Part shown: positions 6,930 through 29,904 of the stretch, one piece after another
Position numbering within the stretch: position 1 is the first letter of the stretch
Layout of the letters: the number at the start of each line of letters is the position of its first letter
Origin: a virus
Lineage: Duplodnaviria > Heunggongvirae > Uroviricota > Caudoviricetes
Direction: 5' to 3' (one strand)
Virus record (IMG/VR): IMGVR_UViG_2737471869_000016
DNA length: 37,383 nucleotides
Translations under genes and position numbers: made by a program
Notes under the pieces: model-generated
Databases searched by the model: none
What the model saw: only the letters and a program-made list of their open reading frames with translations
Told to the model about the DNA's origin: nothing

Positions 6930-7035
6930 AAAGTGGCGATAAAAAGTGACAATAGATTCAAATGGCGTTGTATAGAGCCATTTTCAAAGTTAATAAAATC
7001 ATAAGGTTATGATTTATAAATGGTGGTTGATAGTT

Positions 7036-7090
7036 TTTAAAATCCCTCGGCGTTCGCGCTGTGCGGGTTCAAGTCCCGCTCCGGGTACCA
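7036..7090 (+). other. att-like fragment: 3' ~55 nt of tRNA-Leu(UAA) (anticodon loop, variable arm, T-arm, acceptor 3' strand, ACCA); not an intact tRNA gene
   Basis: TTTAAAATCCCTCGGCGTTCGCGCTGTGCGGGTTCAAGTCCCGCTCCGGGTACCA: T-stem GCGGG/CCCGC around the GTTCAAGTC T-loop, ending in ACCA. No complementary 5' acceptor strand (GCCCGGA) or D-arm upstream, so this is a partial copy as left by integration into a tRNA gene. Confidence 0.8.
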
Positions 7091-7132
7091 TGGGAAACAT
7101 CAGAATAATCAAAGCAATAAGCAGTGTCGTGA

Positions 7133-7156
7133 AACCACCTTCGGGTGGTTTTTTTG
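7133..7156 (+). terminator. Rho-independent terminator
   Basis: AAACCACC-TTCG-GGTGGTTT hairpin followed by a T-run, ~40 nt after the tRNA-derived ACCA. Confidence 0.75.
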
Positions 7157-7331
7157 TGCATGCAATTCACGCCCTGTGCATATCCTGTGCTCACGGGGTG
7201 CAATGAGCTGCAATCTACAGCCTGGCAATGCCGAATTGAACGTGTCGCCTCCAGCATAGAGAACCAGGCCGCTTTGCCTGTTTTCCGGTACTCTTCCGGG
7301 AAGGGGGGCCTGCTGAGCAAACTGTAATGTT

Positions 7332-11360: not shown

Positions 11361-11396
11361 ATTACCCCAACGACAGTATTACACCGGTAATAAATG
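11361..11396 (+). repeat. Copy A of a diverged direct repeat (25-bp core ATTACCCCAACGACAGTATTACACC)
   Basis: Matches 22147..22171 with 2 mismatches in 25 bp; flanking similarity extends to ~45 bp; contains internal inverted hexamers ATTACC/GGTAAT. Confidence 0.6.
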
Positions 11397-11470: not shown

Positions 11471-11698
11471 ATGTATAAAACTCGCGGTGAAAGGATCGCA
11501 GAAAGGCTGTGCTGGATATTACTTCAACTGTATACCGGTAATACGGTATCGGTTAATGATATATGTCAGCGTTTCGCGGTCAGTCGCCGAACCGGACAGC
11601 GTGATTTGTTGAGAGTTGAAACTGTAACGGAAACTATTTCACCTGGAAGGGTAAGGCTGGCAAATTTGATAAGGGAACGAGTTAGACGAAATTTTTAA
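11471..11698 (+). CDS. Small HTH protein (75 aa) resembling the N-terminal HTH of WYL-type regulators
   Basis: ICQRFAVSRRTGQRDLLRV parallels the N-terminal HTH of the 300-aa WYL protein ([20 protein letters not shown]). Confidence 0.5.
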   Translation: MYKTRGERIAERLCWILLQLYTGNTVSVNDICQRFAVSRRTGQRDLLRVETVTETISPGRVRLANLIRERVRRNF

Positions 11699-11733
11699 TC
11701 GAATCCATATCAATACTATAAAATATGAAAATT

Positions 11734-11759
11734 AACGGGAGTAAATATATACTCCCGTT
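11734..11759. terminator. Bidirectional terminator-like hairpin between convergent genes
   Basis: AACGGGAGTA-(6 nt)-TACTCCCGTT perfect 10-bp stem; T-rich tracts on both sides. Confidence 0.5.
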
Positions 11760-11779
11760 ATAATGCAACCTTTTTTTAA

Positions 11780-12598
11780 CTACTCAAATGATATTAATTT
11801 AGGTGCGACAGTGTTTTTATGATGTGTTGAATTTGCAAGATTAATAATATCATGAAATGATTTCATGTCGTCGTCAGTGATTTCTAGGGCTGGATCAGCT
11901 AAATCGGCACAGGTAACATTTAACCAGTGTGTTAATGAATCAATCCTGTTTGAAGTAATATATTCAGTGTGACCAACATTCCACTTCCAGTTGATTATCC
12001 GAGCTGGTCTGAATCTCACCTCCCGAACCCCAATTGGTGTTACTGACTCAACGAGAGGGTATATCGTGTTAAGTACTTTATCATGTTCACTGTAGATATT
12101 TAAATGCCCCATTTTTGAACCGTAAGCCATTTTCATTATGTTCTCTGTATAACTTGTTATTGGGGTGGCTCCGGCCATAGAGATTGTTAAGAGAATATTA
12201 TCATTTTTAATATAGGGTAATGTATTGTTTATTAATCGAGTCCCTAAAGAATGACCCATTATGATCACATTACGCTTTTCTTTAACGTATATCTCGTTTA
12301 TTACGCGTGCTAATTTTTCTCTGTTATTAACTGCTGCTTTCGTTGCATTATACCAGGCCTGACGCGCTTTAAATGGGATGGAGATTGATGACAATAAAGG
12401 AGATGTTCTCAGGGGGAAGAGAGTATATAGCCCCCACTCGTTCGCTATGTCAGAACTTAATATGGATAGTAGATTTGCCGATTCCCATTTATAGTATCTG
12501 ACATCAAGGCCACACCCTGCTTTAATTCGGTTAAACCATGATATATCATTTTCGGTCAGAAACCCTGATACAACAAGAAGAACCGGGCATTTTTTCAT
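11780..12598 (-). CDS. Alpha/beta-hydrolase fold protein (272 aa), putative serine esterase/lipase
   Basis: Nucleophile-elbow motif GHSLG (VIIMGHSLGTRL); candidate acid/base residues downstream (EHDKV); AT-rich gene immediately downstream of the WYL regulator on the same strand. Confidence 0.65.
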   Translation of the reverse strand: MKKCPVLLVVSGFLTENDISWFNRIKAGCGLDVRYYKWESANLLSILSSDIANEWGLYTLFPLRTSPLLSSISIPFKARQAWYNATKAAVNNREKLARVINEIYVKEKRNVIIMGHSLGTRLINNTLPYIKNDNILLTISMAGATPITSYTENIMKMAYGSKMGHLNIYSEHDKVLNTIYPLVESVTPIGVREVRFRPARIINWKWNVGHTEYITSNRIDSLTHWLNVTCADLADPALEITDDDMKSFHDIINLANSTHHKNTVAPKLISFE

Positions 12599-12659
12599 GG
12601 TAACTCCATTTTTTAGCTTACAAAAATAGCACTCAATGAAAATTATATTATCCGTGTCA

Positions 12660-13562
12660 TTACGGGGCGTTACTTGGCTGGGTGTAACGTTTCAGTGCGG
12701 ATTGTATATCTTCAGCAAGTTGTTGACGGATTGAGGCCGGTTGTATTACTTCGACATCCGGTATCCAGTATTTCATTAAAGGCATTATCTGATCTGTGTG
12801 TGTTACACGTGATATCACCAGTAAATCGCCAGACCGGGAAGTATGAATTATTTCCTGTCCTGGCAATAGATGACGGTGGGTAAACCACGGAGCAACATGT
12901 GCGGAAACTGAAATAAGAACTTCGATAAGGTCTTCGCTATACCAGATACCATCTGTCTTTTCTATTTTTTCATTAATTTCGGGGATTATCCTGAAAGAGA
13001 TATTACTCATGCAAACGTCTTTGACAGATGAGATAACAAAGCTTTTTAATGTACTGTCATGGGCGGCAGCGAGATACCACAATCCGTTGTCATTAACCAG
13101 TCTGTATGGCTCAACAGCCCGAAACTCTTTATCTTTGTAATTAAAATTTACTTTCTTCTGTGACAGGATGGCATCGGATAATACATTCAGAATTGACATG
13201 AATGATCCGCAGTTTTCGTATGGACGTTGTTTTATCAGAAACGGGTTGTTTTTCGTGTTACCTAACAAAATACTCAGTAGTCTGTCATCCCAGCGAGGGA
13301 ACAGCCCTTCAATACCCAGGATGCGCGTGAAATGACGTAAATCAGCATTGCTGCGTTGACCGAGAACACCGTCAGACAGGCGATAGCGACCATTTTGTCG
13401 AATCAGATTAAGATAGGACAGGCGCTGAGTAAGATCACGACGGATAGTTTTTTCGCAAACGTTAAATTCCTCAGATAACTCCCGGAAGGCTAGTGACTCA
13501 CCATTGTTCAGGCGAGTTAATATCAATCCGAGTCGATATCCAAGTTTATCGTGCTTACCCAT
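12660..13562 (-). CDS. WYL-domain transcriptional regulator (HTH + WYL), BrxR/CapW-like (300 aa)
   Basis: N-terminal HTH ([20 protein letters not shown]) and central WYL signature ([20 protein letters not shown]). Subfamily assignment is by analogy. Confidence 0.8.
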
Positions 13563-13611
13563 TCGTTTATCCGGTTAATGCCAGCGAAGAGGATATTTTC
13601 AGCAAAGTAAC

Positions 13612-13722
13612 GGACAGGATGAGTCCACTTTTACTGTGACGGAGAAAAAAATTAACTCATTAATTATCAATATATTAAAACATTGCTGGAATCATCGAAT
13701 AACATATGGACTCATCCTGTCC
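13612..13722. promoter_or_regulatory. Perfect 16-bp inverted repeat pair (GGACAGGATGAGTCCA / TGGACTCATCCTGTCC) spaced by 79 bp, 50-160 bp upstream of the WYL regulator start
   Basis: Arms at 13612..13627 and 13707..13722 are exact reverse complements, around an AT-rich spacer in the divergent promoter region between the WYL gene and the 108-aa gene. Confidence 0.55.
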
Positions 13723-13941
13723 ATGTGTATTTTTACGTTCAGGGTGATAATTATCATCCTGACCTGTACATGACCTGTTTTTGCTGCATATTTGACCATG
13801 CACTTTTGCCATCAAGTCGGAGAGGCAGGGGGGAACGTAAGATACGAAGGTTAGAGAGGTTATCAGCAATTACAATGATGATTAATATTTTCATAATATC
13901 GGAGAACATCATATTAGTTGAAATAACATAAAGGTGGTTCT

Positions 13942-14268
13942 ATGTATTTACATATCAGAAAGTATCAACTCGTAAATGCGAGATGGCGTGATGTCATTGA
14001 TCTGACAGATTATGAAGAAACAATAAGGCAGATTGTCGGTACATTATTTGGAAATGATTTTATTGAGGTCAGCGTTGAAACAAATTTTTTTACTCTGACA
14101 GTAAACAGTACAAGCAGTAAAATACCACACGGCATACTGGTGAATATGGGGAAAAGGCTGGCGGCTAATCTCCAGAGTATCACCTGTCATGCCATGCGGA
14201 TCTATCATGTTAATGGCCATCCTGACGCGCGGCAGTTATTTCACTGTTTTGATGTCGATTGCCTGTGA
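13942..14268 (+). CDS. Hypothetical protein (108 aa)
   Basis: ORF-track frame; divergent from WYL regulator, convergent with the polymerase gene. Confidence 0.5.
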   Translation: MYLHIRKYQLVNARWRDVIDLTDYEETIRQIVGTLFGNDFIEVSVETNFFTLTVNSTSSKIPHGILVNMGKRLAANLQSITCHAMRIYHVNGHPDARQLFHCFDVDCL

Positions 14269-14283
14269 TTAAGCCCCCAACTT

Positions 14284-14312
14284 CTGTTAAAGGAGTTGGG
14301 GGAGATTTAACG
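14284..14312. terminator. Hairpin between convergent genes (possible bidirectional terminator)
   Basis: CCCCCAACT-(11 nt)-AGTTGGGGG perfect 9-bp stem just downstream of both the 108-aa gene and the polymerase gene; no strong T-run. Confidence 0.45.
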
Positions 14313-14316
14313 GTTA

Positions 14317-16980
14317 TCAGGCTGGAAGACAGAATGTCGGATATTTACGGGCTATGATATCCATCAGTGACTTCATTCGCGGTGTTACAGAACTAAATTT
14401 CATTTGGGGTATTTTTGCTCTTACCGCATTTTTTACATCAGTCACCGTTACTGAATAGCCTTCTGACGTCAGCCATTCAGCAACCTCTTTACAGGAATAA
14501 CTTTTTTTATCTTTCAGCATCAGCCCCCATTGGCACTGAGTCAGCGCCCGGAGAAATAGTCTGACTAAAATATCATCACTACGTTTGCTTCCGACTTTTA
14601 GTTTCATATCAGAAAACACCGTCCGGCAATAGAGAAAATCACACCAGTCATCCCAGTCAGCCAGGGTCTTCAGTGTATGCGTTTGCCGCCAGTCGTCGAA
14701 AAGAGAGCGTTGCTGCAGAGCCTCTTCCATATTATCCCATGGGCGGGAAAACATCAGTAAATGCCCTTCATTCATGGCGGGCTGTACGGGCTGGCGTTTG
14801 AAATCGAATTCCAGATTAAGACGGATATCCTGTTCCCGGGATACCAGATCGCTTTCCGACAGCCACATCTCACGCGTTGATATCAACGTACTTCGGGATA
14901 ACGTCTGACCGGGTAAACGATTAAGGTAAAGATCTACCATATAGTCGTTATAGTCACTGCGTGGAATATCGGCAGGAGGTTTGACGCCAGCCCTGGCATG
15001 AACAACAGGTTTTCCCTGAATAGCTCTATAGGTTAACTGCCCCCGGGTTTTCATGGCGATAAGCTGGCTGACTTCATGCTTACATGTCAACATTGATGAA
15101 CCCGGATCAACAATATCGCACAGCGACTGGAAGCGGGAAGACAGTGGACCGCTCATGTTTATCTTGTTAAGTGGGCAATTTGTCAAAAAGCCATCGGTTG
15201 TGACGCTGACAACCGATGAATCAGAAGGCAAAGCATTCATGAGTTCCCCGGCAACGGCGCGGATAAATCCCGTTACATGCGCAGCAAAGAATGGCTGAGT
15301 AACCGATGATGGCGGGAGGGATCTGTTTAATCCACGGGCAGTATCAAAGGCGGTTTTGGCGCGAAGGCCCTGAGCAAGTTTGCCATAAAGCGAGTTGCCA
15401 ATTTCTTTCCAGAATTTCTCCTCCAGAGAACCTTTAATATGGCGATTACGGTTCTCACGGACCTGTTGAACAAAGGGAAGAAACACCGATGTTGATTCGC
15501 TGTTATGTGGGGAGATGTCACAGATCCAGGGGACGATGATCCCATTATGGATCGTCATCTCTGCCCCGAGCGACAGAGCAAGTTCGATTTCAGGTGCCGT
15601 TGCCCATGATTCGCCACTTAATGGAAAGAATAACCCATATTGATCGGTCCGAACCGGCAGGCTGGGATAGGGAACTGATTCCGGGAACCGAAATGTGACA
15701 AGCGCAAATCCCATTACATGCCCACAGTAATCGTCCGGATTTTTACTGAGGCGGATGTTCCCGTAATCGGGTGTGAGGATATCTAATAGCCCGGTGGTAT
15801 ACGCTCCAGCCAGATCGTAGTCATACCAGTGATCAGACGGTGTAACCCCCATCATAAAACACTCATTGCGTCCGCCGTGGTAACAGTTGATCGGGAACGT
15901 TTCAAACAACTCTCTTGAAGGAACACTGGCGGGGTTTTTAATCGTCCGGAATGCCTGTTTTTCCGTGAGCCAGAGTTCACGGGTTTTAATGTGTGTCCCA
16001 AGGCAGACTTCAGGAGACATATTGTTTTCTTTAAGTGTTTTGGTGAACCGTGAAACTGCCATCGCCCCGATGGTGGCGGGGACACGATCAATCATCAGCT
16101 CCCGGGCGCAAAAATTGCGAACCTGTAAAGCATAACGAACCGCAATCTCGGCATCCCGCAGAGCATAGGCTTCAAACCCTGCTCTGTCGCCCAGAAGATA
16201 TTCACGCATATTGGTTATGGAATAAGGTGCAGGAATGGTGAGTTTGGGAAGACCCAGTAATTCACCACATTCAGCCAGACCCATACCCCCGGGAGTGATA
16301 AGCAGTGTATCGATGAAAGCTACGTTACTGCAACGCGGAGGGGAAGTTCGTTTGTCAAACATTATCTGTTCAGTCTTTACGCGACGTTCCTGCTGTTCAT
16401 CAAAATCGATACCGTAACGATTTTTGAAGCTGCTGACAGTACCGCGTATTCCTTTCAGAAGAATTTTGTAGTCTGACCAGAAATTGGCAAAGGAGGCGAT
16501 ATCCGCACGAATGAAATGCGCATATATATTAATAATACCGGGCCATTTTGTAATCACACCCGTTTCAAGAAGCGGTGTAATCGTTTGACAGAGAAATTCC
16601 TTAAAAGACAGCCGGGATTTTTTCTGTGAGTCAGGTGGATAGATAATGTTCGATATACCTGTATTATCGGGTAAGACAACATAACTCTGATATGACAGAA
16701 TATCATTCTGTCGTGTTTCAGGGTTGAAAACATATTCGGTATCAAAACCGATATGGAGCGTCAGGTCGTTTGAAATCACAGACACGTTTTTTGATGCAGG
16801 TGGCATCACAGGATAATCATCAAGCGTTTTAGGTCTTTTACGATTGAGCACTGGCTCTGAAGTCACGGACTGATACCCCGAGGCGGCAGCGAGGATATCC
16901 TGCAAATTATGGCTCATAGTTAACTCCGAAAAAATGCCGGGAGCTGTGTCCCGGCATAAAGAATCAAGATTTAATAACAT
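14317..16980 (-). CDS. Family-B DNA polymerase of the primer-independent type (piPolB), pipolin hallmark (887 aa in ORF track; likely start at internal Met 16917, RBS GGAG)
   Basis: PolB motifs read in the translation: Exo I IGFDTEYV (DxE), Exo III YALRDAEI (Yx3D), motif B KEIGNSLYGKLAQG (Kx3NSxYG), motif C-like VTTDGF, and AMKTRGQ, i.e. the KTRG motif that I recall replacing KxY in piPolBs. Neighbours are integrase and AlpA/Xis-like genes. Confidence 0.85.
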   Translation of the reverse strand: MLLNLDSLCRDTAPGIFSELTMSHNLQDILAAASGYQSVTSEPVLNRKRPKTLDDYPVMPPASKNVSVISNDLTLHIGFDTEYVFNPETRQNDILSYQSYVVLPDNTGISNIIYPPDSQKKSRLSFKEFLCQTITPLLETGVITKWPGIINIYAHFIRADIASFANFWSDYKILLKGIRGTVSSFKNRYGIDFDEQQERRVKTEQIMFDKRTSPPRCSNVAFIDTLLITPGGMGLAECGELLGLPKLTIPAPYSITNMREYLLGDRAGFEAYALRDAEIAVRYALQVRNFCARELMIDRVPATIGAMAVSRFTKTLKENNMSPEVCLGTHIKTRELWLTEKQAFRTIKNPASVPSRELFETFPINCYHGGRNECFMMGVTPSDHWYDYDLAGAYTTGLLDILTPDYGNIRLSKNPDDYCGHVMGFALVTFRFPESVPYPSLPVRTDQYGLFFPLSGESWATAPEIELALSLGAEMTIHNGIIVPWICDISPHNSESTSVFLPFVQQVRENRNRHIKGSLEEKFWKEIGNSLYGKLAQGLRAKTAFDTARGLNRSLPPSSVTQPFFAAHVTGFIRAVAGELMNALPSDSSVVSVTTDGFLTNCPLNKINMSGPLSSRFQSLCDIVDPGSSMLTCKHEVSQLIAMKTRGQLTYRAIQGKPVVHARAGVKPPADIPRSDYNDYMVDLYLNRLPGQTLSRSTLISTREMWLSESDLVSREQDIRLNLEFDFKRQPVQPAMNEGHLLMFSRPWDNMEEALQQRSLFDDWRQTHTLKTLADWDDWCDFLYCRTVFSDMKLKVGSKRSDDILVRLFLRALTQCQWGLMLKDKKSYSCKEVAEWLTSEGYSVTVTDVKNAVRAKIPQMKFSSVTPRMKSLMDIIARKYPTFCLPA

Positions 16981-17602
16981 TTACTACAGATTTGAAAATA
17001 TCGGTTTTGCGTGATTCATCATCTGCATGGATAAATGAAACGAGGTTCCTGCCTGCTTTAATCAGGATGCCACGTTGCGTCTTTTCCACAGATGGGGTGA
17101 CGCGTGCAGATAACAGACAATTTTCATGTAACTGAAGAAACTTTTTTGAGGCGTAGCCGCCATGCAGTCGGGCTTTAATTTCATTATACATATCATCAAG
17201 AGAACCGGGTTCTCCTGATTCACTCAATACCGGATAGCCCTTCTTATCAAAAAGGCTGAGGATAGATTTACCATCATGTTCGAACAAGGTAACACCGTAA
17301 ATGTATTTCATTCGAAAGGTGAGGGCGTCGGTGGTGTAGATCTCCTCCTGACAACTGAAATTTTTGAGACGCCTGGCTAATTCATTAAAAACAGCACGAG
17401 CAGTAGCCGTGTCCTGCAGGGTGTAGGTATAAAGTACGAAGCCATCTGTGCCGATGAGCTTTACTAAGTTGTCCATAATCGTGATAGCGAGAACTAATGC
17501 AAAGGACAGATATTTTTCATCGTTGTCTACAGCTGTGCTTGCTGATTCGGGAATAATGTTCAGTGCATTATTAGCGTTATTTTCCGTGTTCTTAGTAACC
17601 AT
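16964..17602 (-). CDS. Hypothetical protein (212 aa) between the AlpA/Xis-like gene and piPolB
   Basis: ORF-track frame; overlaps the AlpA-like gene by 11 nt; no motif recognised. Confidence 0.6.
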   Translation of the reverse strand: MVTKNTENNANNALNIIPESASTAVDNDEKYLSFALVLAITIMDNLVKLIGTDGFVLYTYTLQDTATARAVFNELARRLKNFSCQEEIYTTDALTFRMKYIYGVTLFEHDGKSILSLFDKKGYPVLSESGEPGSLDDMYNEIKARLHGGYASKKFLQLHENCLLSARVTPSVEKTQRGILIKAGRNLVSFIHADDESRKTDIFKSVVNVIKS

Positions 17603-17792
17603 TTATATCACCTTTAAGTTTGTTTTGACGATGTGCATTTTCCCACTCAACAATATCGTCAAGAGAGAATCGTATAGCCCGCCCAATTCTGATGAAGGGC
17701 GGGAGTTTTCCGGGGTTGCGCGATATATCTGACGCAACCGTGGATGCAGAAAGATTAAATCTTTCTGCGAACTGCTTAATGGTTAAATACAT
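17592..17792 (-). CDS. AlpA-family HTH protein / putative excisionase (66 aa)
   Basis: YLTIKQFAERFNLSASTV ... IRIGRAIRFSLDDIVEWE matches the AlpA/Xis pattern; immediately downstream of the integrase. Confidence 0.75.
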   Translation of the reverse strand: MYLTIKQFAERFNLSASTVASDISRNPGKLPPFIRIGRAIRFSLDDIVEWENAHRQNKLKGDINGY

Positions 17793-17934
17793 AAACCTCC
17801 GGTTTCAGAGAATAAGAAGCCACGCGGATTTAATATCAATCCACATTCTGTGATGACTTAATGCAGGGCCCTGCAGAAGCATGCAATGACAATACCGTCC
17901 TTAAACGAGTGTTGCATCAATCACGAATCACAGA

Positions 17935-19071
17935 TCATAGGTTCATTTTTGTGTCATAACTTTCTATGACCTGAGAAACCACTGCGTGTGATGTCGCTGC
18001 ATTGTGAAAAGCGTAGCGACGGGTCGCCGTGAGTGAATGGTGATTTAGCAGATGGGAAGCGATTGCAATATCCCCGGTCGCCTGTAGTACCCGGGTGGCA
18101 AAGGTACGGCGCAGGTCATGCATCCGCAGGTTATCAATGTTGGCATCCCGACAAATACGGGCAAAGGTTGCACGCGGATATGCCAGAGGGCGGGCATTGT
18201 CGGTTAGTTGTGGAAAAATGTAAGTTTTGCTGAGCATCAGGTCTTGCTGGCACTGGACAACTGCAATGGCTGGAGGTGCAAGTGGGCAGGTGAAAGGGTG
18301 TCCGGACTTTGTATCAGGCAGTATGAGTTGATGCATATCCGGGTGCCAGTACTCCCATTTCAGGGTACATACCTCACCAATACGCATCCCCGTATAAAGA
18401 GCAAGCAATATAGAATCAGCTGCCGGTGTTTGCAGCGCTGTTGCCGCGTCAATAAAGCGCGGGATTTCTGTCGCTGATAGTGTGCGATAGCGAATGTTAT
18501 TTTCTTTCAGATAGCGGACATGTGACATCGGGGAATGTGTGATCCATCCAGCACGTACTGCCAGAGAGCATATTTTGGACAATATTGCGAGGATACGGTT
18601 TACTGTTGACGGACGTAATTTTTCCCGTAAGCCAGCAGCATATTGTTCTAGTTCTCCTGCCGTGATGTCGCGAAGTTGCCGCTTGCCCCAGAACGGGCGA
18701 ACGTAGAGGTTGAGTTTTGACAACTCTGACTGAGGACTCTTTTTATACAACTGCAAATCCGGTAGCCACAGGTCATTGATGGCCTGTTCCACAGTGAATC
18801 GACGGGACTGAACCGCAAGACGATTTTTATCAGCAAGCAGTTTCATCACATGCTGACGGGCATCCTCAACGCAGAGCTGAGGGAACTGACCCAGGGTTTC
18901 ATATATACGCTGATTGTTTATAGTGGTACGAAAGGCCAGCGTGATCCGATTGGGATACACCAGAGCACGCAGGTTTTGGCAGTGAATATCACGGTATTCC
19001 TGACAACCCGTGAGGGGATGTGGAAGTTGGTGAATTGATTTGTTGCTGAAACGCAGATCCAGAATAGGCAT
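17935..19071 (-). CDS. int: Tyrosine site-specific integrase (378 aa)
   Basis: Catalytic motifs LALYTGMRIGEV, HDLRRTFATRVL, LLNHHSLTATRRY (R..HxxR..Y). Confidence 0.9.
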   Translation of the reverse strand: MPILDLRFSNKSIHQLPHPLTGCQEYRDIHCQNLRALVYPNRITLAFRTTINNQRIYETLGQFPQLCVEDARQHVMKLLADKNRLAVQSRRFTVEQAINDLWLPDLQLYKKSPQSELSKLNLYVRPFWGKRQLRDITAGELEQYAAGLREKLRPSTVNRILAILSKICSLAVRAGWITHSPMSHVRYLKENNIRYRTLSATEIPRFIDAATALQTPAADSILLALYTGMRIGEVCTLKWEYWHPDMHQLILPDTKSGHPFTCPLAPPAIAVVQCQQDLMLSKTYIFPQLTDNARPLAYPRATFARICRDANIDNLRMHDLRRTFATRVLQATGDIAIASHLLNHHSLTATRRYAFHNAATSHAVVSQVIESYDTKMNL

Positions 19072-19213
19072 CGTATTTCTCCTGTAAATGACACTGGAAA
19101 AATACGATGTGAGGTTATAGTCTGCCAGTTACAGCTTTCACAGTTCATCAGGTGAAAAATGCTGATTCGGATATAATGGCAACACAATTCCATGTCGCCA
19201 TTATATTAAGAAA

Positions 19214-20344
19214 CTACAGTTTCATGATCTTGTTCGCTATTTTTTCGAAGTAAACCTCATTCTTAAGAAGAGTGATATTGTTAGTTTGAACACCCAGACC
19301 ACTGGACGTTGACTGGAAATTCATTGAACCACTTATCACTGTGGACTTTCCTGATAAAAAGGAAATCAACTCCTTGGAAGATGGTGCCCACTCAGGGTTT
19401 AAGAGTAATGCAATATAGATATATGTCTTACGAAGCAATTGTTCGATATCTTTTTTATGCCCTGTAGTGTTTTGCTTACCTTTAATGCAAATAGATTTGA
19501 TTATGAACTCATCAGGGCTGGTTAAAGGCGTTTTAAACTTATTCAGTGATCCATCGTTATGAATGACTTCATAAGGCAGCATAGATAAAATGATCAATGC
19601 AATCATTTTAGGATGATAAAGGTAGTTATCACGAATGATTTTTCCTGCCTTCATTGTATTGAGCGTTGTTTGAATAAATACAAAAAGATATTCAGAGCAA
19701 AAGTAACAAAACACAAGCCAGGATAGGTCAATGGCTGGAATGTTAATATCCTTAGGTAGTTTGTTTAGCCAGTATTCAGACTTCAAAAAGGTCCTGATTT
19801 CAACAGTATATTCATGCATTTTTGCGCTGAAATCAAGCATTGCTACTTGACCTGATTGTTCCGTAACTGTGTGGTCTATAAATGTTAGTGTATTGCACAT
19901 TTTATCCAGCGTGTTTTGAAAACAAGAAAGGAGTTCGGCATTATTATTACCATTAACCGCAGATGAAAGTTCAGTTTTAATAAATGCATCCAGTAGCATA
20001 CAGATTTCTTTCGGAATTACATTTTTACGGGATTGCTGTGAATAGAAATGTACTGCCAGTAAATTAAAGGCAGTGCACTCCTTTTTTAACCATTGTTCGA
20101 GCACTGGGACGTGCTGAAAAAAATTGATATGCTTAGCAGTAGATGCTGATGGAGACAGTACATGAAGAATATCTACAGCAGGCTTCATTTGCAATATTTG
20201 ATCGGATTCGGTAGTCGTCATTAGTTCCAGTAATTGCTGTTCAGAAAATAGTTTAGACAGGTGATCAATGTCTTTTTGGTATTGATTAAGTTTTGTTAAA
20301 TTCCCCGGTATACGGGTTACATTGTTTTTCATTTTCTCGAACAT
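19214..20344 (-). CDS. Hypothetical protein (376 aa), AT-rich
   Basis: Long ORF in a strongly AT-rich block; no motif recognised; location beside an R-M operon. Confidence 0.6.
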   Translation of the reverse strand: MFEKMKNNVTRIPGNLTKLNQYQKDIDHLSKLFSEQQLLELMTTTESDQILQMKPAVDILHVLSPSASTAKHINFFQHVPVLEQWLKKECTAFNLLAVHFYSQQSRKNVIPKEICMLLDAFIKTELSSAVNGNNNAELLSCFQNTLDKMCNTLTFIDHTVTEQSGQVAMLDFSAKMHEYTVEIRTFLKSEYWLNKLPKDINIPAIDLSWLVFCYFCSEYLFVFIQTTLNTMKAGKIIRDNYLYHPKMIALIILSMLPYEVIHNDGSLNKFKTPLTSPDEFIIKSICIKGKQNTTGHKKDIEQLLRKTYIYIALLLNPEWAPSSKELISFLSGKSTVISGSMNFQSTSSGLGVQTNNITLLKNEVYFEKIANKIMKL

Positions 20345-20850
20345 AATTTTATCCTCGTTTGAATTATTACACTGATTTAAAAAGTAGCATGTCGTGTTAG
20401 CGAGGTAATCCTAAAACGTGAATGGCAGCAGGGGCAAGCTTGAATCTGCGTAAGGATATGGCTTAAATTTAATGGTGTAATCAGTGAGTTAGAGGCTTAT
20501 AGCCATTTAAATACAATAAGTTATGATGATATGTGGCGGGTGTAAATCGGTTAGTTTTTATGGTTAAAATATGAGCGTTGTGAGATTTGAGATATGATGG
20601 TTTTTAAATTACATACAAGTTACCCCTGATGATCAGTATTAATACCAGAATGATACATGCGAGCAGCACCCAATCCTGTACTATTGATGATGGCTATACA
20701 AGGCTGAAACTTTGAGTTGTATGTTGCCAGGAGGATTAATGTCCACAAGGCCCAGATAGAATGATTTCTCAGATATTAAAGTTGAAACTTATTAACTATG
20801 TGAGAGGCTGATATTTATTCAGTCTCTCATTTGTTTTTATCGTTTTAAAG

Positions 20851-22086
20851 TTAAAAGGAAATAAATAATGCCTTCCGCCGATGAATCAATATGCTGATTT
20901 CCCTCAAATCAGCCTCAATACTACCAACATCACCAAAGACTTCACCTCTAATCTCACTTCGATTTTTCATGAAATTGGTGCTTAATAAGCTTTCTTTTTT
21001 TAATGCCATTAATTTTGGTTTTATATCGTTATAGAAGTGCTTATGGCTTACCCTGATGTTATGAATCGAGTAGTAAACTGTTTTATACATCAAAAATATA
21101 AGTAACTGGCCGAGAAGATATTCTTTTTCAATGTATTTATATTGAGAGGATTTTTCGCGTTTCGCCAGGTAGAAAACATGAGGTGCGATGATGGTGGGGA
21201 TAAAATCCAGTGCTGGAGAGGTTTTGGTTTTTTCTGTTTCTCTTCCGGATTGAAGATGTTGAAGTACAGAGTATGCAATGCTTAATATTATGGCATTGCT
21301 TATATTATTAATTTCAGTTGGGTAAATATGCAGGTTGCTTATCAATTCTGAAAGGCAAAGTAAAACACCAGTGATGTTGGGTTTTCTGCCAGAGATTGTG
21401 GTGCTGTTGAAAATGTGACGATTCTTACGACTTATATTGACAAGTTTATGAGTGCAGAACTCTATATGTTTGACGATTTTATCTTGACTATTTTTAATGT
21501 ATTTTGAAATGTTAGTGATCCGGCCATTCAACGTTAGTTCATCAAGCAATATATCATTTTTAATATTGCGAATTTCATCGCAATGTTTAGATTCAAAAAC
21601 TATCTCATGTAATACATAACTCGAAGTATTGCGTGACGATGCTGATATGTAATCTAAAATGGAATGCTCGACTTTGATTTTTTGTTTGTATTTTTTAATG
21701 CACTGTTTGATTGTTTTTTGTAGAGTATTTGAGATGTGTTTTTTATATTCTTTTAGAAAATCTTGCTCTAAAAAGAGTGAGGAGAAGATCAACTGCTGGC
21801 GAGATAATTTAATCTCAGGCTTGATCAATTTAATCCGAAAAACTCTTCCCTCCAACTCATAGCTGAACATGGAAGATAAGTCATAGTGGGGTGATAAATG
21901 TTCGAGTAACGACATTCGTGTATTCATTAGCCGTTTGAATTTATGGTCAGCATACATAAGTGTTTTTTTTATTTGCTCATCATAAAGTGGGCCGATAGCG
22001 CAGTTGGCAATACTCATTCTATCCGGAGACCTCCAGTCAGCAGGGGAATCACATTGACGGTCATCATTACTATCAAAGGGCATCAA
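20851..22086 (-). CDS. Hypothetical protein (411 aa), AT-rich
   Basis: Long ORF in an AT-rich block; Lys/Ile/Asn-rich; no motif recognised. Confidence 0.6.
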   Translation of the reverse strand: MMPFDSNDDRQCDSPADWRSPDRMSIANCAIGPLYDEQIKKTLMYADHKFKRLMNTRMSLLEHLSPHYDLSSMFSYELEGRVFRIKLIKPEIKLSRQQLIFSSLFLEQDFLKEYKKHISNTLQKTIKQCIKKYKQKIKVEHSILDYISASSRNTSSYVLHEIVFESKHCDEIRNIKNDILLDELTLNGRITNISKYIKNSQDKIVKHIEFCTHKLVNISRKNRHIFNSTTISGRKPNITGVLLCLSELISNLHIYPTEINNISNAIILSIAYSVLQHLQSGRETEKTKTSPALDFIPTIIAPHVFYLAKREKSSQYKYIEKEYLLGQLLIFLMYKTVYYSIHNIRVSHKHFYNDIKPKLMALKKESLLSTNFMKNRSEIRGEVFGDVGSIEADLREISILIHRRKALFISF

Positions 22087-22146: not shown

Positions 22147-22184
22147 ATTACCCCAACGGCAGTTTTACACCATGGCTAATATGG
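22147..22184 (+). repeat. Copy B of the diverged direct repeat (core ATTACCCCAACGGCAGTTTTACACC)
   Basis: Matches copy A (11361..11385) with 2 mismatches in 25 bp; lies ~60 bp upstream of the 411-aa gene start and ~220 bp upstream of hsdM. Confidence 0.6.
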
Positions 22185-22389: not shown

Positions 22390-23913
22390 ATGAACGACAA
22401 AATCAGTCAGGACACGATCAACAAAGCCCTGTGGGCCGCGTGTGATACGTTCCGTGGCACCATCAGTGCTGATACCTATAAAGACTTTATCCTTACCATG
22501 CTGTTCCTCAAGTACATTTCAGATGTCTGGCAGGATCACTATGACGAATACAAAGAACAGTATGGCGATGCGCCGGAACTGATTGAAGCGATGATGGCCA
22601 ACGAGCGTTTTGTACTGCCAAAAAGTGCCAGCTTTTATGCGCTGTACGAACGCCGCCATGAGCCGGGTAACGGTGAGCGTATCGATCAGGCGCTGCATGC
22701 GATTGAAGAAGCCAACGGCACCAAACTGAAAGATGCCGGGAAAAGCGTGTTCCAGGATATTTCGTTTAACACTGACCGCTTGGGTGAAGAAAAACAGAAG
22801 AACACCATCCTGCGCCAGCTGCTGGAAGACTTTGCCGGTGAAGATCTTAACCTGAAGCCAAGCCGTGTAGGTACGCTGGACGTTATCGGTAACGCTTACG
22901 AATATCTGATTAAAAACTTTGCCGCCAGCGGTGGGCAGAAAGCCGGGGAATTCTATACGCCGCCGGAAGTTTCGGACCTGATTGCAGAACTGCTCGATCC
23001 GCAACCGGGTGATACCATCTGTGACCCTGCCTGTGGTTCTGGTTCGTTGTTAATGAAGTGCGGGCGTAAGATTGTCTCCGGGCATGAAAGCCGTAACTAT
23101 GCTTTGTTCGGTCAGGAAGCGATTGGCTCCACGTGGTCGCTGGCGAAAATGAACATGTTTCTTCACGGCGAAGACAACCACAAAATCGAGTGGGGCGATA
23201 CCATTCGTAACCCGAAGCTACTCGATAAAAATGGCGACCTGATGCTGTTTGATATCGTTACCGCTAACCCGCCGTTCAGTCTGGATAAGTGGGGCCATGA
23301 TGAGGCCGAGAACGATAAGTTTGGTCGTTTCCGTCGCGGTGTACCGCCGAAGACTAAAGGAGATTACGCCTTTATCTCGCATATGATAGAAACCCTGAAA
23401 CCGGGAACGGGTCGTATGGGCGTAGTTGTGCCACACGGTGTGCTTTTCCGTGGCTCCAGCGAAGGTAAAATTCGCCAGAAACTGATCGACGAAAATTTGC
23501 TGGATGCGGTAATTGGTCTGCCGGAAAAACTGTTCTACGGTACGGGGATTCCGGCTGCGATTCTGATTTTCAAAAAGCAGAAAGTGGATGACAAGGTGCT
23601 GTTTATCGACGCCAGCCGTGATTATAAGGCTGGTAAAAATCAGAACCAGCTCAGCGCTGAAAATATCCAGAAGATCGTTAACACCTATCGAGAAGGCGAT
23701 AACGTCGAGAAATACGCCTATCTCGCCAGCCTGAAAGAGATTCAGGACAACGACTATAACCTGAATATTCCGCGCTATGTTGATACCTTTGAGGAAGAGG
23801 AAGAGGTCGATTTGCTGGCCGTGCGTAAAGCGCGAGAGCAACTGAAGGTGGAACTGGCGAAACTGGAAACGGAGATGGCAGGTTATTTGAAGGAGTTAGG
23901 TTATGGTGCCTAA
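22390..23913 (+). CDS. hsdM: Type I restriction-modification system, DNA methyltransferase subunit (507 aa)
   Basis: SAM-binding motif I DPACGSGSLL, EFYTPPEV, catalytic motif IV NPPF (IVTANPPFSL). Confidence 0.95.
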   Translation: MNDKISQDTINKALWAACDTFRGTISADTYKDFILTMLFLKYISDVWQDHYDEYKEQYGDAPELIEAMMANERFVLPKSASFYALYERRHEPGNGERIDQALHAIEEANGTKLKDAGKSVFQDISFNTDRLGEEKQKNTILRQLLEDFAGEDLNLKPSRVGTLDVIGNAYEYLIKNFAASGGQKAGEFYTPPEVSDLIAELLDPQPGDTICDPACGSGSLLMKCGRKIVSGHESRNYALFGQEAIGSTWSLAKMNMFLHGEDNHKIEWGDTIRNPKLLDKNGDLMLFDIVTANPPFSLDKWGHDEAENDKFGRFRRGVPPKTKGDYAFISHMIETLKPGTGRMGVVVPHGVLFRGSSEGKIRQKLIDENLLDAVIGLPEKLFYGTGIPAAILIFKKQKVDDKVLFIDASRDYKAGKNQNQLSAENIQKIVNTYREGDNVEKYAYLASLKEIQDNDYNLNIPRYVDTFEEEEEVDLLAVRKAREQLKVELAKLETEMAGYLKELGYGA

Positions 23914-25135
23914 AGGTTGGATGCTTAAACAGTTGTCGGATATTGTAAAAGAAAAAATATCTTATGGAATTGTTCAGGCGGGACCACATATTCCTAATGG
24001 AATACCTTATATAAAAAGCTCTGACATTAGAGGGGCTATTGATCCTGCGTCACTGCAGAGGACAGCGCCTGAAATACATTATAAGTACAGACGTTCAGCT
24101 GTGCACCCTGGGGATATTATATTCTCCTTGAGAGGCAACATTGGCGAGACAGCCATAGTGCCTTCTAATTTATTAGAAGCGAATTTAACGCAAGGTACAG
24201 CACGGATATCAGTATCTGGTGATCAATGTAATGAGTTTTACCATCAACAATTTGCGATGGATAAATTACGTAATTATATTAATTCCTTGAGCAAAGGGAG
24301 TACATTTAAGGAAATTTCACTAGAAGAGCTACGTAAAGTTAAAGTTCTGTGTGCCCCCCTTCCTGAACAAAAGAAAATTGCTCAAATCCTGTCCACCTGG
24401 GATAAGGCAATTACGGTGACGGAAAAGCTTCTCGTCAACAGCCAGCAGCAGAAAAAAGCCCTGATGCAGCAATTGCTTACCGGGAAAAAACGCCTGCTGG
24501 ATGAGAATGGGGTGAGGTTTAGCACGGAGTGGGAGTTTAAAAGAATAAGTGAAATAGCAACGCGAGTTCAACGTAAAAATGATGCTGCCGAACATCCTAT
24601 TTTAACAATATCATCTTTGTCCGGATTTGTCCGGCAGGATGAGCGTTATAGTCGTTATATGGCGGGAGAAAGTGTGAAAAATTATATCCTGCTTAAAAAA
24701 GGTGAGTTTGCATATAACAAAGGAAACTCAAAAACATACGAGTTCGGATGTATTTTTGACCTTGAAGCATATGAAGCAGGACTGGTACCCCATGTCTATG
24801 TTTGCTTTAGATTAAAAAATGGGCTCAGTCACCGTTATTTTAAATATTTATTTGAGGCTGATTATCTCAAGCCACAGTTAGGGGCGTTAGTTAATACTGG
24901 GGTCCGAAATAATGGTTTATTAAATATCAAACCGACAGAGTTTATGCAAACAAAAGTCCCTGTTCCATGTTTTGAAGAGCAGGAAAGCATCGCTGATATG
25001 TTATATAACTCCAGCAGGACGATACGTGTTCTTCAGGATAAACTCGCCTGCCTGAAAGACGAGAAAAAAGCCCTGATGCAACAGCTACTGACTGGCAAAC
25101 GTCGTGTTAAGGTCGATGAGGCGGTTGCCGTATGA
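23903..25135 (+). CDS. hsdS: Type I restriction-modification system, specificity subunit (410 aa)
   Basis: Duplicated conserved segments KKALMQQLLTGKKRL (central) and KKALMQQLLTGKRRV (C-terminal) separating two target-recognition domains; start overlaps hsdM stop. Confidence 0.9.
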   Translation: MVPKGWMLKQLSDIVKEKISYGIVQAGPHIPNGIPYIKSSDIRGAIDPASLQRTAPEIHYKYRRSAVHPGDIIFSLRGNIGETAIVPSNLLEANLTQGTARISVSGDQCNEFYHQQFAMDKLRNYINSLSKGSTFKEISLEELRKVKVLCAPLPEQKKIAQILSTWDKAITVTEKLLVNSQQQKKALMQQLLTGKKRLLDENGVRFSTEWEFKRISEIATRVQRKNDAAEHPILTISSLSGFVRQDERYSRYMAGESVKNYILLKKGEFAYNKGNSKTYEFGCIFDLEAYEAGLVPHVYVCFRLKNGLSHRYFKYLFEADYLKPQLGALVNTGVRNNGLLNIKPTEFMQTKVPVPCFEEQESIADMLYNSSRTIRVLQDKLACLKDEKKALMQQLLTGKRRVKVDEAVAV

Positions 25136-25815
25136 AACTGACGAAAAGCGGTCCACTGACTGACCGGGAAATCGACTGGCTGGAAGAAATATTAATGAAG
25201 TATGGAATGGATGATTCTGTACTCTGTTTCTCTGAGCTGGATGGATTGCTGACGGCGATTTTATCAGGTCCAAATATGGTTTCACCCAATATCTGGCTGA
25301 GTGCTATTTGGGGAGGAGGCGATTATCATCCGAAATGGTCATCTGAGAGAGAGATGGAGCGTTTTGTCAGTCTGTGTTTTCAGCATATGAACGATATCGC
25401 TGGTTGCCTTTATGACGCCCCTGAACTGTTTGAGCCGATTTTCAATGAGCGTGAGGTAAAGGGGGAAAAATATACCATTGTGGAAGAGTGGTGTTTTGGT
25501 TATATGAAAGGAAAGTCACTGGATGACTGGTCTGGTCTTCCCGGTGAGTTACGGCCTTCTCTGGAAGTGATCGCTCTTCATGGCGTGGAGAAGAATTTTC
25601 CTGTACTTGAGAAAATGACCGGAGAGCAGTTTGAGAAAAGTATTTCCCTTATTCAGCCTGCTGCACTGGCACTTTATCAGTACTGGTTGTCAGTGAGAAT
25701 GTCAGAGGCATCATCCCGGCCTGTTCCAGTGAAGGGGGCAGAAAACATGCCCGGGCGAAATGACCCGTGTCCGTGTGGCAGCGGTAAAAAATTTAAGAAG
25801 TGCTGTCTGCATTGA
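25132..25815 (+). CDS. YecA-like (UPF0149-type) protein with C-terminal SEC-C metal-binding motif (227 aa), embedded in the hsd operon
   Basis: C-terminal GRNDPCPCGSGKKFKKCCLH is a SEC-C zinc-binding motif; overall length and layout resemble E. coli YecA as I recall it; ATGA start/stop overlap with hsdS. Confidence 0.7.
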   Translation: MKLTKSGPLTDREIDWLEEILMKYGMDDSVLCFSELDGLLTAILSGPNMVSPNIWLSAIWGGGDYHPKWSSEREMERFVSLCFQHMNDIAGCLYDAPELFEPIFNEREVKGEKYTIVEEWCFGYMKGKSLDDWSGLPGELRPSLEVIALHGVEKNFPVLEKMTGEQFEKSISLIQPAALALYQYWLSVRMSEASSRPVPVKGAENMPGRNDPCPCGSGKKFKKCCLH

Positions 25816-28800: not shown

Positions 28801-29152
28801 AGAACAGGTTGAAGCCCGTAAGCTCAGCGATATCCCGGATGCACTGGCGGTAAACAAGCATGCTCAGGCGTATTACGGTGTATTTAAAAAAGAGCTACCT
28901 GAGGTTTTTGCGGTAAACGACGTTCAGGTGCAGGATAAGTGGACGAAGCTGGCTTTTGAAGTGGACAACATTATCGTCAAAGCGGTGGCAGAAAACTCCC
29001 TGAACCCCCAGGACATTGAGAAAGTCGTTAAGACAAGTCTGCTACCACTGCTGTTTACGGCCTGCCGGGAAATTGGTGCCGGAATGAATCAGGTTAACCG
29101 TATTGTGGAAACCATCATCCAGATACTGCGCGTTGGTTTGATGAAATCATGA
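25865..29152 (+). CDS. hsdR: Type I restriction enzyme, R (endonuclease/translocase) subunit (1095 aa)
   Basis: Helicase motif I HTTGSGKSYTM, motif II DEAH-type VLIDEGHRSQ; size typical of HsdR. Confidence 0.95.
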   Translation: MMNQTYTPKFQEEYSAKIPALTLLTSLGWTFLSPKQIMDYRGYKQDEVVLRPVLREELSKRSFMAGGKTCQLSEKALDNLISQVCSPALNEGLLKANERMYNHLLYGIAVTEFVDGKKVNPTIALIDWEHPENNQFHFTEEFTVLRSGGVETRRPDIVCFVNGIPLAVIEAKSPAGHGKKGPTIDEGISQSIRNQLNDEIPQLFAYSQILLSINGHDGRYGTCHTPMKFWAAWREEDITYAQMYALRNHKLSTEQIHALFDHRPSVDLKWYQQLIDGGELAVSGQDKLLISLLSPERLLEMTRFFTLFDKKTGKIVARYQQVFGIKRLLERISTRRPDGGREGGVIWHTTGSGKSYTMVFLSKALILHDSLKRCRIVVVTDRIDLEEQLSNTFASGGELAGKKDKANAMATSGQMLAKQIGSGKERIIFTLIQKFNSATKLPECVNTSPDIIVLIDEGHRSQGGENHVRMKLALPNAAFVAFTGTPLLKEDKTTNKFGPIVHAYTMQRAVEDKAVTPLLYEERIPDLEVNDRAIDAWFDRITDGLSEAQKADLKRKYARKGEVYSADDRIRLIALDIATHFSKNIDEGLKGQLACDSKISAIKYKKYLDEAGLFESAVVISPPDTREGNTEVDESKLPEVTKWWKDNVGTQDESVYTRNIISRFDTDEKLKLLIVVDKLLTGFDEPKNTVLYIDKPLKSHNLIQAIARVNRLHPLKKFGLLIDYRGILAELDTTIGKYQDLASRTQGGYDIKDIDGLYSAMSSEYKRLPHLYNQLWAIFAGVKNKNDTEQLRAVLVPKMEERDGEMVDIHQKTRDDFFEALTAFAGCLKVALQSATFFTDKSFTEQDRNLYKETVKQMSSLRQWAMQVSGEQVNYDDYAEQVKKLLDKHVTGVEVREPDGVYEVGKMGKSEKPSEWDNNKTRNETDIIKTRVTKMIEQELRDDPYAQEAFSKLLRMAIEEAEKLFDHPLKQYLLFREFEEQVEARKLSDIPDALAVNKHAQAYYGVFKKELPEVFAVNDVQVQDKWTKLAFEVDNIIVKAVAENSLNPQDIEKVVKTSLLPLLFTACREIGAGMNQVNRIVETIIQILRVGLMKS

Positions 29153-29904
29153 GTGAAAAAGAATCGCCATCAATGAAAGCGTTACGCATTGTCTATGGTG
29201 ATGAGGTCATCGTCGTACAGTGTGCTCCGCGTCAGGTCGTAAAGGGCAGGGTGCTCATCAAGGTTTATCCGGACTGCCGGGTTGTGGCCTCTGTACCGCC
29301 TGAAACACCGGAGCACGAGGTATTGTCTGCGCTGAAAAAACGTGGGCGCTGGATATACCAGCAACTGCGTGATTTCAGGGAGCAACAGACACACATTGTT
29401 CCGCGTCAGTATGTCAGCGGAGAAAGCCATTATTATCTCGGTAAGCAATATCAGTTGAAAGTGACAGAAGACGCTACTGTGCCGCAACGAGTGAAAATGT
29501 TGCGTGGGCGTCTGGAAGTGACTGTCAGACACAAATCGGCAGAAAAGATTAAAGCCTTGCTGGCTGAATGGTATCGGGAACGTGCCAGAGATGTTTTTCA
29601 GCGCAGGCTTGATTTACTGATTCCGCAGACCCTTTGGGTCAGTGAGCGTCCTCCGATACGTCTGCGGGCGATGCAAACGCAATGGGGCAACTGTTCAGCA
29701 AAAGGCTGTCTGACCCTGAATCCATGGCTGGTTAAGGCATCCTCAGAATGTATCGATTATGTTTTGCTACATGAGTTATGCCATGTGGCTGAACACAACC
29801 ACAGCGAGGAGTTTTACCGTCTGATGGGGCAGGTTATGCCGGGCTGGGAAAAGGTTAAGAAGCGACTGGATGGTATGGCTGGGATGTTGTTGGCAGATAT
29901 GTAA
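29149..29904 (+). CDS. HExxH zinc metallohydrolase, YgjP/DUF45-like (251 aa)
   Basis: HELCHVAEHNHS (HExxH plus downstream His); start overlaps hsdR stop. I recall COG1451-type hydrolases being frequently linked to hsdR. Confidence 0.7.
   Translation: MSEKESPSMKALRIVYGDEVIVVQCAPRQVVKGRVLIKVYPDCRVVASVPPETPEHEVLSALKKRGRWIYQQLRDFREQQTHIVPRQYVSGESHYYLGKQYQLKVTEDATVPQRVKMLRGRLEVTVRHKSAEKIKALLAEWYRERARDVFQRRLDLLIPQTLWVSERPPIRLRAMQTQWGNCSAKGCLTLNPWLVKASSECIDYVLLHELCHVAEHNHSEEFYRLMGQVMPGWEKVKKRLDGMAGMLLADM

Follow-up and report, generated by a model that had tools for sequence, protein, structure and literature searches.

What is the role of two large, AT-rich genes that lie between an integrase gene and a type I restriction-modification (R-M) operon and belong to no named family? 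The question is raised by IMG/VR record IMGVR_UViG_2737471869_000016, a 37,383-nucleotide stretch of DNA to which we refer, in its entirety, as the window. Its two minus-strand genes, here termed A and B, are separated by a spacer of about 500 bp, and an earlier note drawn from the letters alone had judged the block typical of abortive-infection (Abi) or other single-gene defence proteins. That label found no direct support: no defence match, effector domain or fold could be attached to either gene. On the loci compared, A is a pipolin-restricted gene holding a fixed position in the IntP2-excisionase-orf212-piPolB module of these mobile elements, and B is an optional upstream neighbour tied to one allele class of A. 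The genes concerned, all from the program-made list of open reading frames (ORFs), are as follows.

19214..20344, minus strand: gene A, 376 aa, ATG start
20851..22086, minus strand: gene B, 411 aa from a TTG
17935..19071: IntP2 tyrosine recombinase, also seen in an identical RefSeq locus
17592..17792: helix-turn-helix (HTH) protein, excisionase-like, also seen in the identical RefSeq locus
14317..16980, minus strand: piPolB, a PolB of 887 aa, annotated as DNA polymerase in the identical RefSeq locus

Judged by its sequence, the window is an Escherichia coli pipolin, i.e. a mobile element encoding the primer-independent polymerase piPolB. A 3.2-kb part of it is 100% identical to E. coli 08-00022 and occurs in 427 of 5426 complete E. 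coli genomes. In 08-00022, the island adjoins tRNA-Leu and carries a site-specific (IntSXT-type) integrase, DUF2787, a DNA polymerase of family B and, together with an HTH protein, a second tyrosine recombinase; A and B come next. Beyond them lie a type I R-M system, a YecA-like protein, an M48 peptidase, DUF262, a PD-(D/E)XK protein, a restriction enzyme and an MZA system. ARAGORN detected no tRNA gene in the window, although the identical pipolin of 08-00022 abuts tRNA-Leu. Pipolins of E. coli have been described (Flament-Simon et al. 2020, PMC7385651; Mateo-Caceres and Redrejo-Rodriguez 2024, PMC11551731). According to PMC11551731, enterobacterial pipolins are bimodular: piPolB, IntSXT, IntP2 and its excisionase, DUF2787, WYL and orphan proteins make up the conserved core, and defence genes, swapped with other mobile elements, form the distal cargo; the core genes are stated there to lack homologues in other mobile elements, and pipolins are described as defence islands. 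The element itself is therefore already known, and A and B are annotated as hypothetical proteins. In the portions of PMC7385651 and PMC11551731 available to us, the gene at the A/B position is not named and A and B are not individually described, and a literature search on the A and B protein accessions returned no citing paper.

The order A, IntP2, HTH_17 excisionase, orf200-221 and piPolB, all on one strand, was found in each of the 21 loci that contain an A homologue and enough downstream sequence. This set combines 18 loci from a tblastn table with three loci (L026, L027 and L029) carrying more distant A alleles, and spans at least six A allele classes and no fewer than 12 genera. Over the regions fetched, the gene order is the same in E. 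coli HUE1, CP53 and H10407. The features by which pipolins are recognised accompany A throughout: a piPolB homologue is present in every A-bearing locus with enough sequence, and IntP2 and an excisionase-like HTH protein lie near piPolB, the tRNA-Leu integration site beside the IntSXT-type integrase being seen only in the identical strain 08-00022. Synteny across divergent pipolins and the lack of homologues in other mobile elements, which characterise core genes, apply to A and, in part, to B.

The distribution of A is narrow. At 90% identity, family A falls into 22 clusters; a profile search run exhaustively over 1.84 billion representative proteins returned 32 matches, amounting to about six full-length clusters at 50% identity, and 185,579 species genomes contain A at 10 loci, all in Enterobacteriaceae-type genera. 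Neither family A nor family B had a match in phages. The plasmid matches of A are limited to one N-terminal fragment of 94 residues (38% identity) on two Klebsiella plasmids. These are the mobilizable K. quasipneumoniae plasmids NZ_CP097647.1 and NZ_AP022184.1, the sole A matches outside chromosomal pipolins. Full-length DNA of piPolB, B and A is present in 282, 249 and 234 of the 5426 complete E. coli genomes, respectively. A gene that is fixed beside IntP2-Xis-orf212-piPolB in all pipolins examined, and is absent from phages and essentially from plasmids, does not behave as exchangeable defence cargo.

A resembles the pipolin core module in several respects: it belongs to the same element, it stands at a fixed spot beside IntP2-Xis-orf212-piPolB, it has no homologues in other mobile elements, as PMC11551731 reports for core genes, and exchangeable cargo, the type I R-M system, lies next door. 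It departs from that module in that A and B are far more AT-rich than the remaining core genes, A alleles are swapped between backbones, and B is optional. The position of the core/cargo border can be read from sequence identities, as hsdM is 97-98% identical across genera while, in the same loci, IntP2 is 68-78% and piPolB 65-71% identical. This contrast is what the published account would lead one to expect, namely cargo exchanged of late and a core of greater age, and A hence marks the core side of the border, the two genes lying at the outer end of the module. In Serratia (L003), the R-M system has been replaced, yet the first bases of hsdM (22390-23913 in the window) and its upstream region are kept, placing the cargo exchange boundary at or near the start of hsdM.

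A and B are, on comparative evidence, real protein-coding genes under purifying selection, because ORF lengths are constant and the ratio of non-synonymous to synonymous substitution rates (dN/dS) lies between 0.14 and 0.26. For A, dN/dS values are 0.16-0.26, with one value of 0.48; for B, they are 0.14-0.26, and intact B ORFs are found in eight lineages. Truncated clusters of A (208-335 aa) and of B (255-354 aa) also exist. The sharp AT-richness that first drew attention to the block is real, with 34.0-35.7% GC against about 50% in the integrase and hsdM: A has 35.7%, the spacer 35.2% and B 34.0%, compared with 49.6% for IntP2 and 49.9% for hsdM. In every lineage, A and B are at 33-38% GC and the adjoining genes at 47-51%. 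Since the low GC recurs in every lineage, it is a stable trait of A and B and no mark of recent arrival.

The A protein is predicted to be all-alpha and soluble, with an isoelectric point (pI) of 8.5; its AlphaFold2 (AF2) model has a mean predicted local distance difference test score (pLDDT) of 73.5 and a predicted template modelling score (pTM) of 0.67. Compared among allele classes, residues 1-40 are 48-58% identical and residues 241-340 are 48-67% identical, while residues 121-180 are only 17-19% identical; by this measure, A is a protein with conserved ends and a hypervariable centre (aa 121-180). Its divergence does not always follow that of the module. In the Edwardsiella/Salmonella/Phytobacter lineage, A (69% identity), IntP2 (68-69%) and piPolB (65%) have diverged in step. 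In the Serratia/Buttiauxella/Enterobacter lineage, A is only 36-42% identical despite 77% for IntP2 and 70% for piPolB. A Citrobacter metagenome-assembled genome (MAG) has a backbone from IntP2 to piPolB that is 99% identical to that of the window, yet carries a P0014-type A (44% identity) and leaves no room for B, and in E. coli CP53 the synonymous divergence (dS) is 0.007 for IntP2 versus 0.09 for A. Together, the incongruence between A and backbone in the Citrobacter MAG, the Serratia lineage and CP53 indicates that A alleles have been exchanged between backbones.

B is found only where A is at least 69% identical to that of the window, i.e. in E. coli, Intestinirhabdus, Franconibacter, Citrobacter, Edwardsiella, Salmonella and Phytobacter, and in the B-bearing loci of this allele class it always lies directly upstream of A. 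Loci with A alleles of 36-44% identity (Serratia, Buttiauxella, Enterobacter, Scandinavium and others) have no B, and cargo abuts A. A single B homologue (46% identity; L006) belongs to an element lacking piPolB, where it stands by itself, with a different integrase and a DUF927 primase downstream of it. Family B comprises 13 clusters, all from Enterobacterales, to which a profile search adds none. The protein is basic (pI 9.6), with no membrane segment predicted. Both ORFs, of 376 and 411 aa, lie where the earlier note had put them, except that the start of B may need to be moved. RefSeq calls B as 410 aa from an ATG at 22083; the homologues of other genera all start at the equivalent of M24, which in the window is an ATG at 22017 preceded by GGAGG 12 nt upstream, and the true start is probably this ATG, giving a protein of 388 aa.

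Neither gene could be assigned to a named family, as had been said from the letters alone. Searches of A and B against Pfam, NCBIfam and PHROGs, extended for Pfam to all alignment members, gave noise only. PADLOC-DB v2 (5027 models, including Abi and PD-/PDC candidates) returned no significant defence match for either protein; the best match of A was DpdK, with E = 0.014 and 13 bits over 34 residues, and B had none. The A and B profiles found no match among Protein Data Bank (PDB) sequences, and no specific fold neighbour was found for the A model. Remote homology and structure prediction, the route suggested in the earlier note, thus yielded no known family for either protein, a model of A without a fold neighbour, and an unusable model of B. 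No recognisable nuclease, NTPase, TIR, SIR2, HEPN or membrane-disrupting effector or sensor domain was found in A or B.

Several more specific assignments were considered and rejected. Hydropathy maxima of 1.51 for A and 1.23 for B are under the threshold for a membrane segment, arguing against membrane proteins. On visual inspection of the alignments, R238 of a possible Rx5H HEPN motif is not conserved, and the region 277-290, considered for a PD-(D/E)XK motif, is helical or loop and contains no (D/E)xK. The matches to AbiJ_NTD4, DpdK and HAM1_C were treated as noise. The sole likeness to AbiJ is that of B residues 113-257 to AbiJ_NTD4 (PF18863), with E = 0.011 and 16.6 bits against a cut-off of 34; the match is seen in only two of eight B alignment members, the two near-identical E. 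coli ones, and B has neither a HEPN domain nor a conserved Rx4-6H motif. A and B are not paralogues either, with an hhalign probability of 0.7% and hidden Markov model (HMM) scores within the range of shuffled sequences. A G[KR]xxN[IT]TG-like loop motif common to both is anecdotal, given the lack of profile similarity.

A further feature of these loci is a short DNA box, present twice in the window.

22148..22171, minus strand: 24-nt box GGTGTAAAACTGCCGTTGGGGTAA, copy 1, preceding the probable start of B by about 130 nt
11362..11385, minus strand: 24-nt box GGTGTAATACTGTCGTTGGGGTAA, copy 2, with two mismatches, in the same orientation and 10.8 kb from copy 1

Between them, the two boxes enclose B, A, IntP2, Xis, orf212, piPolB and a further three genes, to the DUF2787 side. 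Where a pipolin has no B, the stretch preceding A is homologous to the one that precedes B in the window, and a 24-26-nt box is found in it at a distance of 65-90 nt from A. Seven divergent loci show the 24-nt box without any change amid flanks that have diverged, and its 26-nt form is unique at three or fewer mismatches, with 0 occurrences expected by chance. A box is present in every pipolin locus, and the pair, 9.8-10.8 kb apart, in all loci spanning both sides (L001-L005, L007-L011, L014-L018 and L020, with a variant in L026 and L027). The possibility that the boxes are attachment (att) sites of IntP2 was not supported: a synthetic box-to-box junction, used as query, gave 0 precise junctions in the 5426 E. 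coli genomes. E. coli I4 (L025), the sole strain with both flanks close together, has kept both boxes and carries an unrelated deletion, which corresponds to about 11500 to 22020 of the window, from a DeoR-like remnant through the start of B. Accordingly, the boxes would more probably be a shared operator or promoter element than an att site.

The DNA around and between A and B was dissected in the same manner.

20345..20600, minus strand: region upstream of A, conserved across genera, with blocks ATAAC..ATTGTATTTAA, TTTAGGATTnCCTCnCTnACAC, AAATCA and a GAGG Shine-Dalgarno sequence
20601..20799: lineage-variable filler, absent in Edwardsiella, Salmonella and Phytobacter and partly replaced in HUE1/CP53
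20620..20748: non-conserved 42-aa ORF within the filler, from an ORF scan and variant comparison
20800..20830, stronger on the plus strand: 12-pair hairpin directly 3' of B, from folding and cross-genus alignment
19171..19206, minus strand: 15-bp perfect stem-loop directly after the A stop codon (-19.6 kcal/mol, z = -4.5)
19072..19106, minus strand: leader hairpin CGTATTTTTCC...CAGGAGAAATACG, pairing with the IntP2 Shine-Dalgarno sequence and found in 10 of 10 lineages folded

The spacer (20345..20850) is 506 bp long and, in agreement with the first description, contains no convincing ORF, the longest having 42 aa from a TTG start and lacking conservation. It measures 506 bp in the window type; E. 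coli HUE1/CP53 have 402 bp, and the other genera about 300 bp. From these comparisons, it is made of three parts: a conserved hairpin 3' of B, a lineage-variable filler, and about 230 bp that are conserved upstream of A.

The hairpin followed by a T-tract, as first noticed, is real and has 12 pairs; its strand needs correction. On the plus strand, it folds with -19.3 kcal/mol (z = -5.2, 0 of 200 shuffles being as good) and is followed by TTGTTTTTAT; on the gene strand, an A.C mismatch reduces it to only -11.7 kcal/mol, and there is no U-tract. The T-tract therefore serves the strand antisense to A and B. The E. coli 506-bp type shares the hairpin with Citrobacter, Franconibacter, Edwardsiella, Salmonella and Phytobacter; there is one double change from A-T to T-A, and the same internal mismatch always favours the opposite strand. 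In the E. coli 402-bp type, the hairpin is degenerate. A stem with U-tract, the mark of a Rho-independent terminator, is found on the plus strand in the E. coli 506-bp type only, and on the gene strand in no lineage.

The filler is the main source of the length differences, and no constraint on it is detectable. In its window type, it occurs in 152 of 5426 E. coli genomes, always in single copy, arguing against a repeated mobile element. Nor does it look like a decayed gene, one of the options in the earlier note: six-frame translation gave no similarity to coding sequence in the fetched loci, and the substitutions in the non-conserved 42-aa ORF, which is broken in the E. coli 402-bp type, are almost all non-synonymous. 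A small RNA, another of its options, fared no better, the middle part being unconserved and Rfam 15 giving nothing credible (the sole match, to a small nucleolar RNA (snoRNA) model, had E = 0.67 and 17.9 bits against a gathering score of 37); no Rfam family scored above its gathering score, and the spacer is rejected as a known RNA.

Its third option, a promoter, is the most plausible, as the conserved upstream blocks point to a control region of the downstream gene, and 20345..20600 is presumed to hold the promoter and leader of A. Promoter-like sites are rarer in the spacer than in shuffled sequence (7 versus 14). No sigma-70 consensus site scoring at least 9/12 was found on the gene strand within the spacer, so the promoter of A is placed by conservation alone. 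The spacer is best read as an ordinary intergenic region made of a 3' hairpin and the control region of A. Past the other end of A, an equivalent of the stem-loop after its stop codon, followed by a T-tract, is present in Edwardsiella, Salmonella and Phytobacter and is terminator-like. With a stem-loop of its own after each gene, A and B look like separately bounded units. The leader hairpin at 19072-19106, from its pairing with the Shine-Dalgarno sequence, suggests translational control of int.

What, then, might A do? We favour, at a probability of roughly 45%, the view that A serves the pipolin life cycle as an accessory or regulatory protein specific to this element and is not a stand-alone defence effector, on account of its strict linkage to the module, its restriction to pipolins, and its conserved ends and variable centre. 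The conserved N- and C-terminal parts of A would engage conserved pipolin DNA (such as the 24-nt boxes) or IntP2, Xis or piPolB. The hypervariable centre (aa 121-180) would determine which signal or partner, itself variable, is recognised. B may modulate or extend the function of A in its own lineage, and the low GC would probably keep both genes tightly silenced, by a putative H-NS-type mechanism.

A number of observations weigh against such a role. A lies 12-15 GC points below the module in every lineage and has its own hairpin, and so looks like an added moron-type gene and not like core machinery. A alleles of 38-44% identity sit on 99%-identical backbones (L019), and such swaps imply that A needs no matched backbone, fitting a host- or phage-directed role at least equally well. 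If A binds the box, it must do so through its conserved parts only, since the box does not change from locus to locus and A does. Finally, the AF2 model of B, built from an 8-sequence alignment, is unusable (pLDDT 38).

The strongest competitor sees in A and/or B single-gene proteins of a moron-like kind, carried by the pipolin and directed against phages or mobile elements (through abortive infection, exclusion or counter-defence), whose expression would not depend on the integrase operon. We consider this a serious possibility, though less probable than the accessory or regulatory role. The two genes are persistently AT-rich compared with their neighbours and form separate hairpin-bounded units; A alleles are replaced on near-identical backbones (A being 36-42% identical where Int is 77% and piPolB 70%), and their centre is hypervariable; B is lineage-dependent and has a homologue beside a different integrase in the non-piPolB element L006; and pipolins are described as defence islands in PMC11551731. 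Set against these points are the negative searches (5027 PADLOC models, Pfam, NCBIfam and PHROGs), the absence of any effector or membrane feature, the overall purifying selection, and the fact that A is never found outside pipolins and, unlike the neighbouring cargo, shows no exchange with phages or plasmids. The moron concept is reportedly due to Hendrix, and defence hotspots beside int in P2/P4-like elements are said to have been described by Rousset et al. in 2022. Like morons and the occupants of int-side hotspots, A and B differ in composition from their neighbours, have their own hairpins, and lie between an integrase and a variable region. Unlike those hotspots, which hold unrelated genes, the slot here is always filled by family A, which belongs to no known defence family.

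A bolder proposal, which we regard as doubtful, is that A is a specificity-determining master regulator or sensor with a new all-alpha fold, the conserved ends of which act at the boxes on either side of the IntP2-piPolB module, and controls excision and piPolB-driven replication, or else a new single-protein immunity or exclusion factor that has become fixed in the backbone of the element. As a master regulator, A would recognise a variable trigger, e.g. a helper-phage protein, through its hypervariable centre. The favoured accessory or regulatory role, for its part, would have a parallel in Stl, the master repressor of Staphylococcus aureus pathogenicity islands (SaPI) and phage-inducible chromosomal islands (PICI). 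Stl is island-restricted, located beside the integrase gene and mainly alpha-helical, as is A, and related islands carry divergent alleles of it that combine a conserved part with a variable partner-recognition part. A differs from Stl in having no detectable helix-turn-helix motif, in being co-directional with int and not divergent from it, and in showing no sequence or fold similarity to it. We also know of no helper phage or inducer for pipolins, unlike SaPI.

It is improbable that B, spacer and A form one system of a sensor-effector or toxin-antitoxin-like kind, with the spacer encoding a small RNA of about 300 nt on the plus strand that would end at 20800-20830. In its favour, B is always the gene immediately upstream of A and is confined to A alleles of 69% identity or more to that of the window; there is a good candidate terminator on the plus strand at 20800-20840, a weak promoter-like site at 20500-20527 on the same strand, and a hairpin conserved across genera. 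Yet most allele classes of A have no B, and B is found with no A beside it in L006 and in E. coli G4/9, there following an IS1 deletion; the spacer varies in length (506, 402 or about 300 bp) and is not conserved in its middle, and the plus-strand T-tract is missing outside the E. coli type. Rfam gave no match at E of 1 or less except the chance snoRNA, no ToxI-type tandem repeats were seen, and promoter-like sites are fewer than in shuffled sequence (7 versus 14). Least probable of all is silenced, functionless, horizontally acquired DNA in slow decay: low GC, absent annotation, circulating truncated clusters of B (255-354 aa) and A (208-335 aa), and insertion sequence (IS) insertions and deletions in the region would fit it, but full-length ORFs of constant size persist in every lineage over a synonymous divergence above 1 with dN/dS of 0.14-0.26, and A has held its position across at least 12 genera.

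Other observations concern the surroundings of A and B. In E. coli G4/9 (L023), IS1 adjoins B, and A, IntP2 and piPolB are deleted. The R-M operon of the window includes a YecA-like SEC-C protein (25132-25815) between hsdS and hsdR and is followed, right after hsdR, by an M48/YgjP-like metallopeptidase (29149-29904); both are kept with the R-M system in other genera. Beyond the metallopeptidase lie DUF262/GmrSD, PD-(D/E)XK, a restriction enzyme and an MZA system. At the other side, the left 7 kb of the window (1-7300) correspond to sequence of strains whose annotation includes a "phage integrase" and further mobile-element genes, a similarity that suggests a second element co-integrated beside the pipolin at the left end of the window. 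Lastly, the draft genome of Intestinirhabdus alba BIT-B35 contains two different pipolin modules, on scaffolds 46 and 51 (L011 and L015), with piPolB 98.9% and 70.6% and A 100% and 36% identical to those of the window. The accessible part of PMC11551731 appears to report no pipolin reinfection in Enterobacterales; the BIT-B35 genome may be an example of such reinfection, contamination being an alternative.

Three aspects of this locus appear to be new, namely the strict linkage of A to IntP2, the architecture of A with conserved ends and a variable centre combined with allele swapping, and the paired 24-nt boxes. For annotation, the lesson is that composition and a position beside an R-M system are insufficient grounds for labelling AT-rich unknown genes as defence. 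Pipolins, which are widespread carriers of defence systems, are themselves poorly understood in their induction, replication control and transfer. To our knowledge, they encode no transfer or regulatory machinery beyond their integrases. A and B are a modest lead for pipolin biology and not a demonstrated new system. A, always found with IntP2-piPolB and nowhere else, and having conserved ends and a variable centre, is a concrete candidate for a pipolin-specific control or conflict function. It is also useful in practice for marking where core gives way to cargo, and the paired 24-nt boxes are a defined DNA element for study. If A were indeed a master regulator, it would offer the first handle on pipolin induction and transfer.

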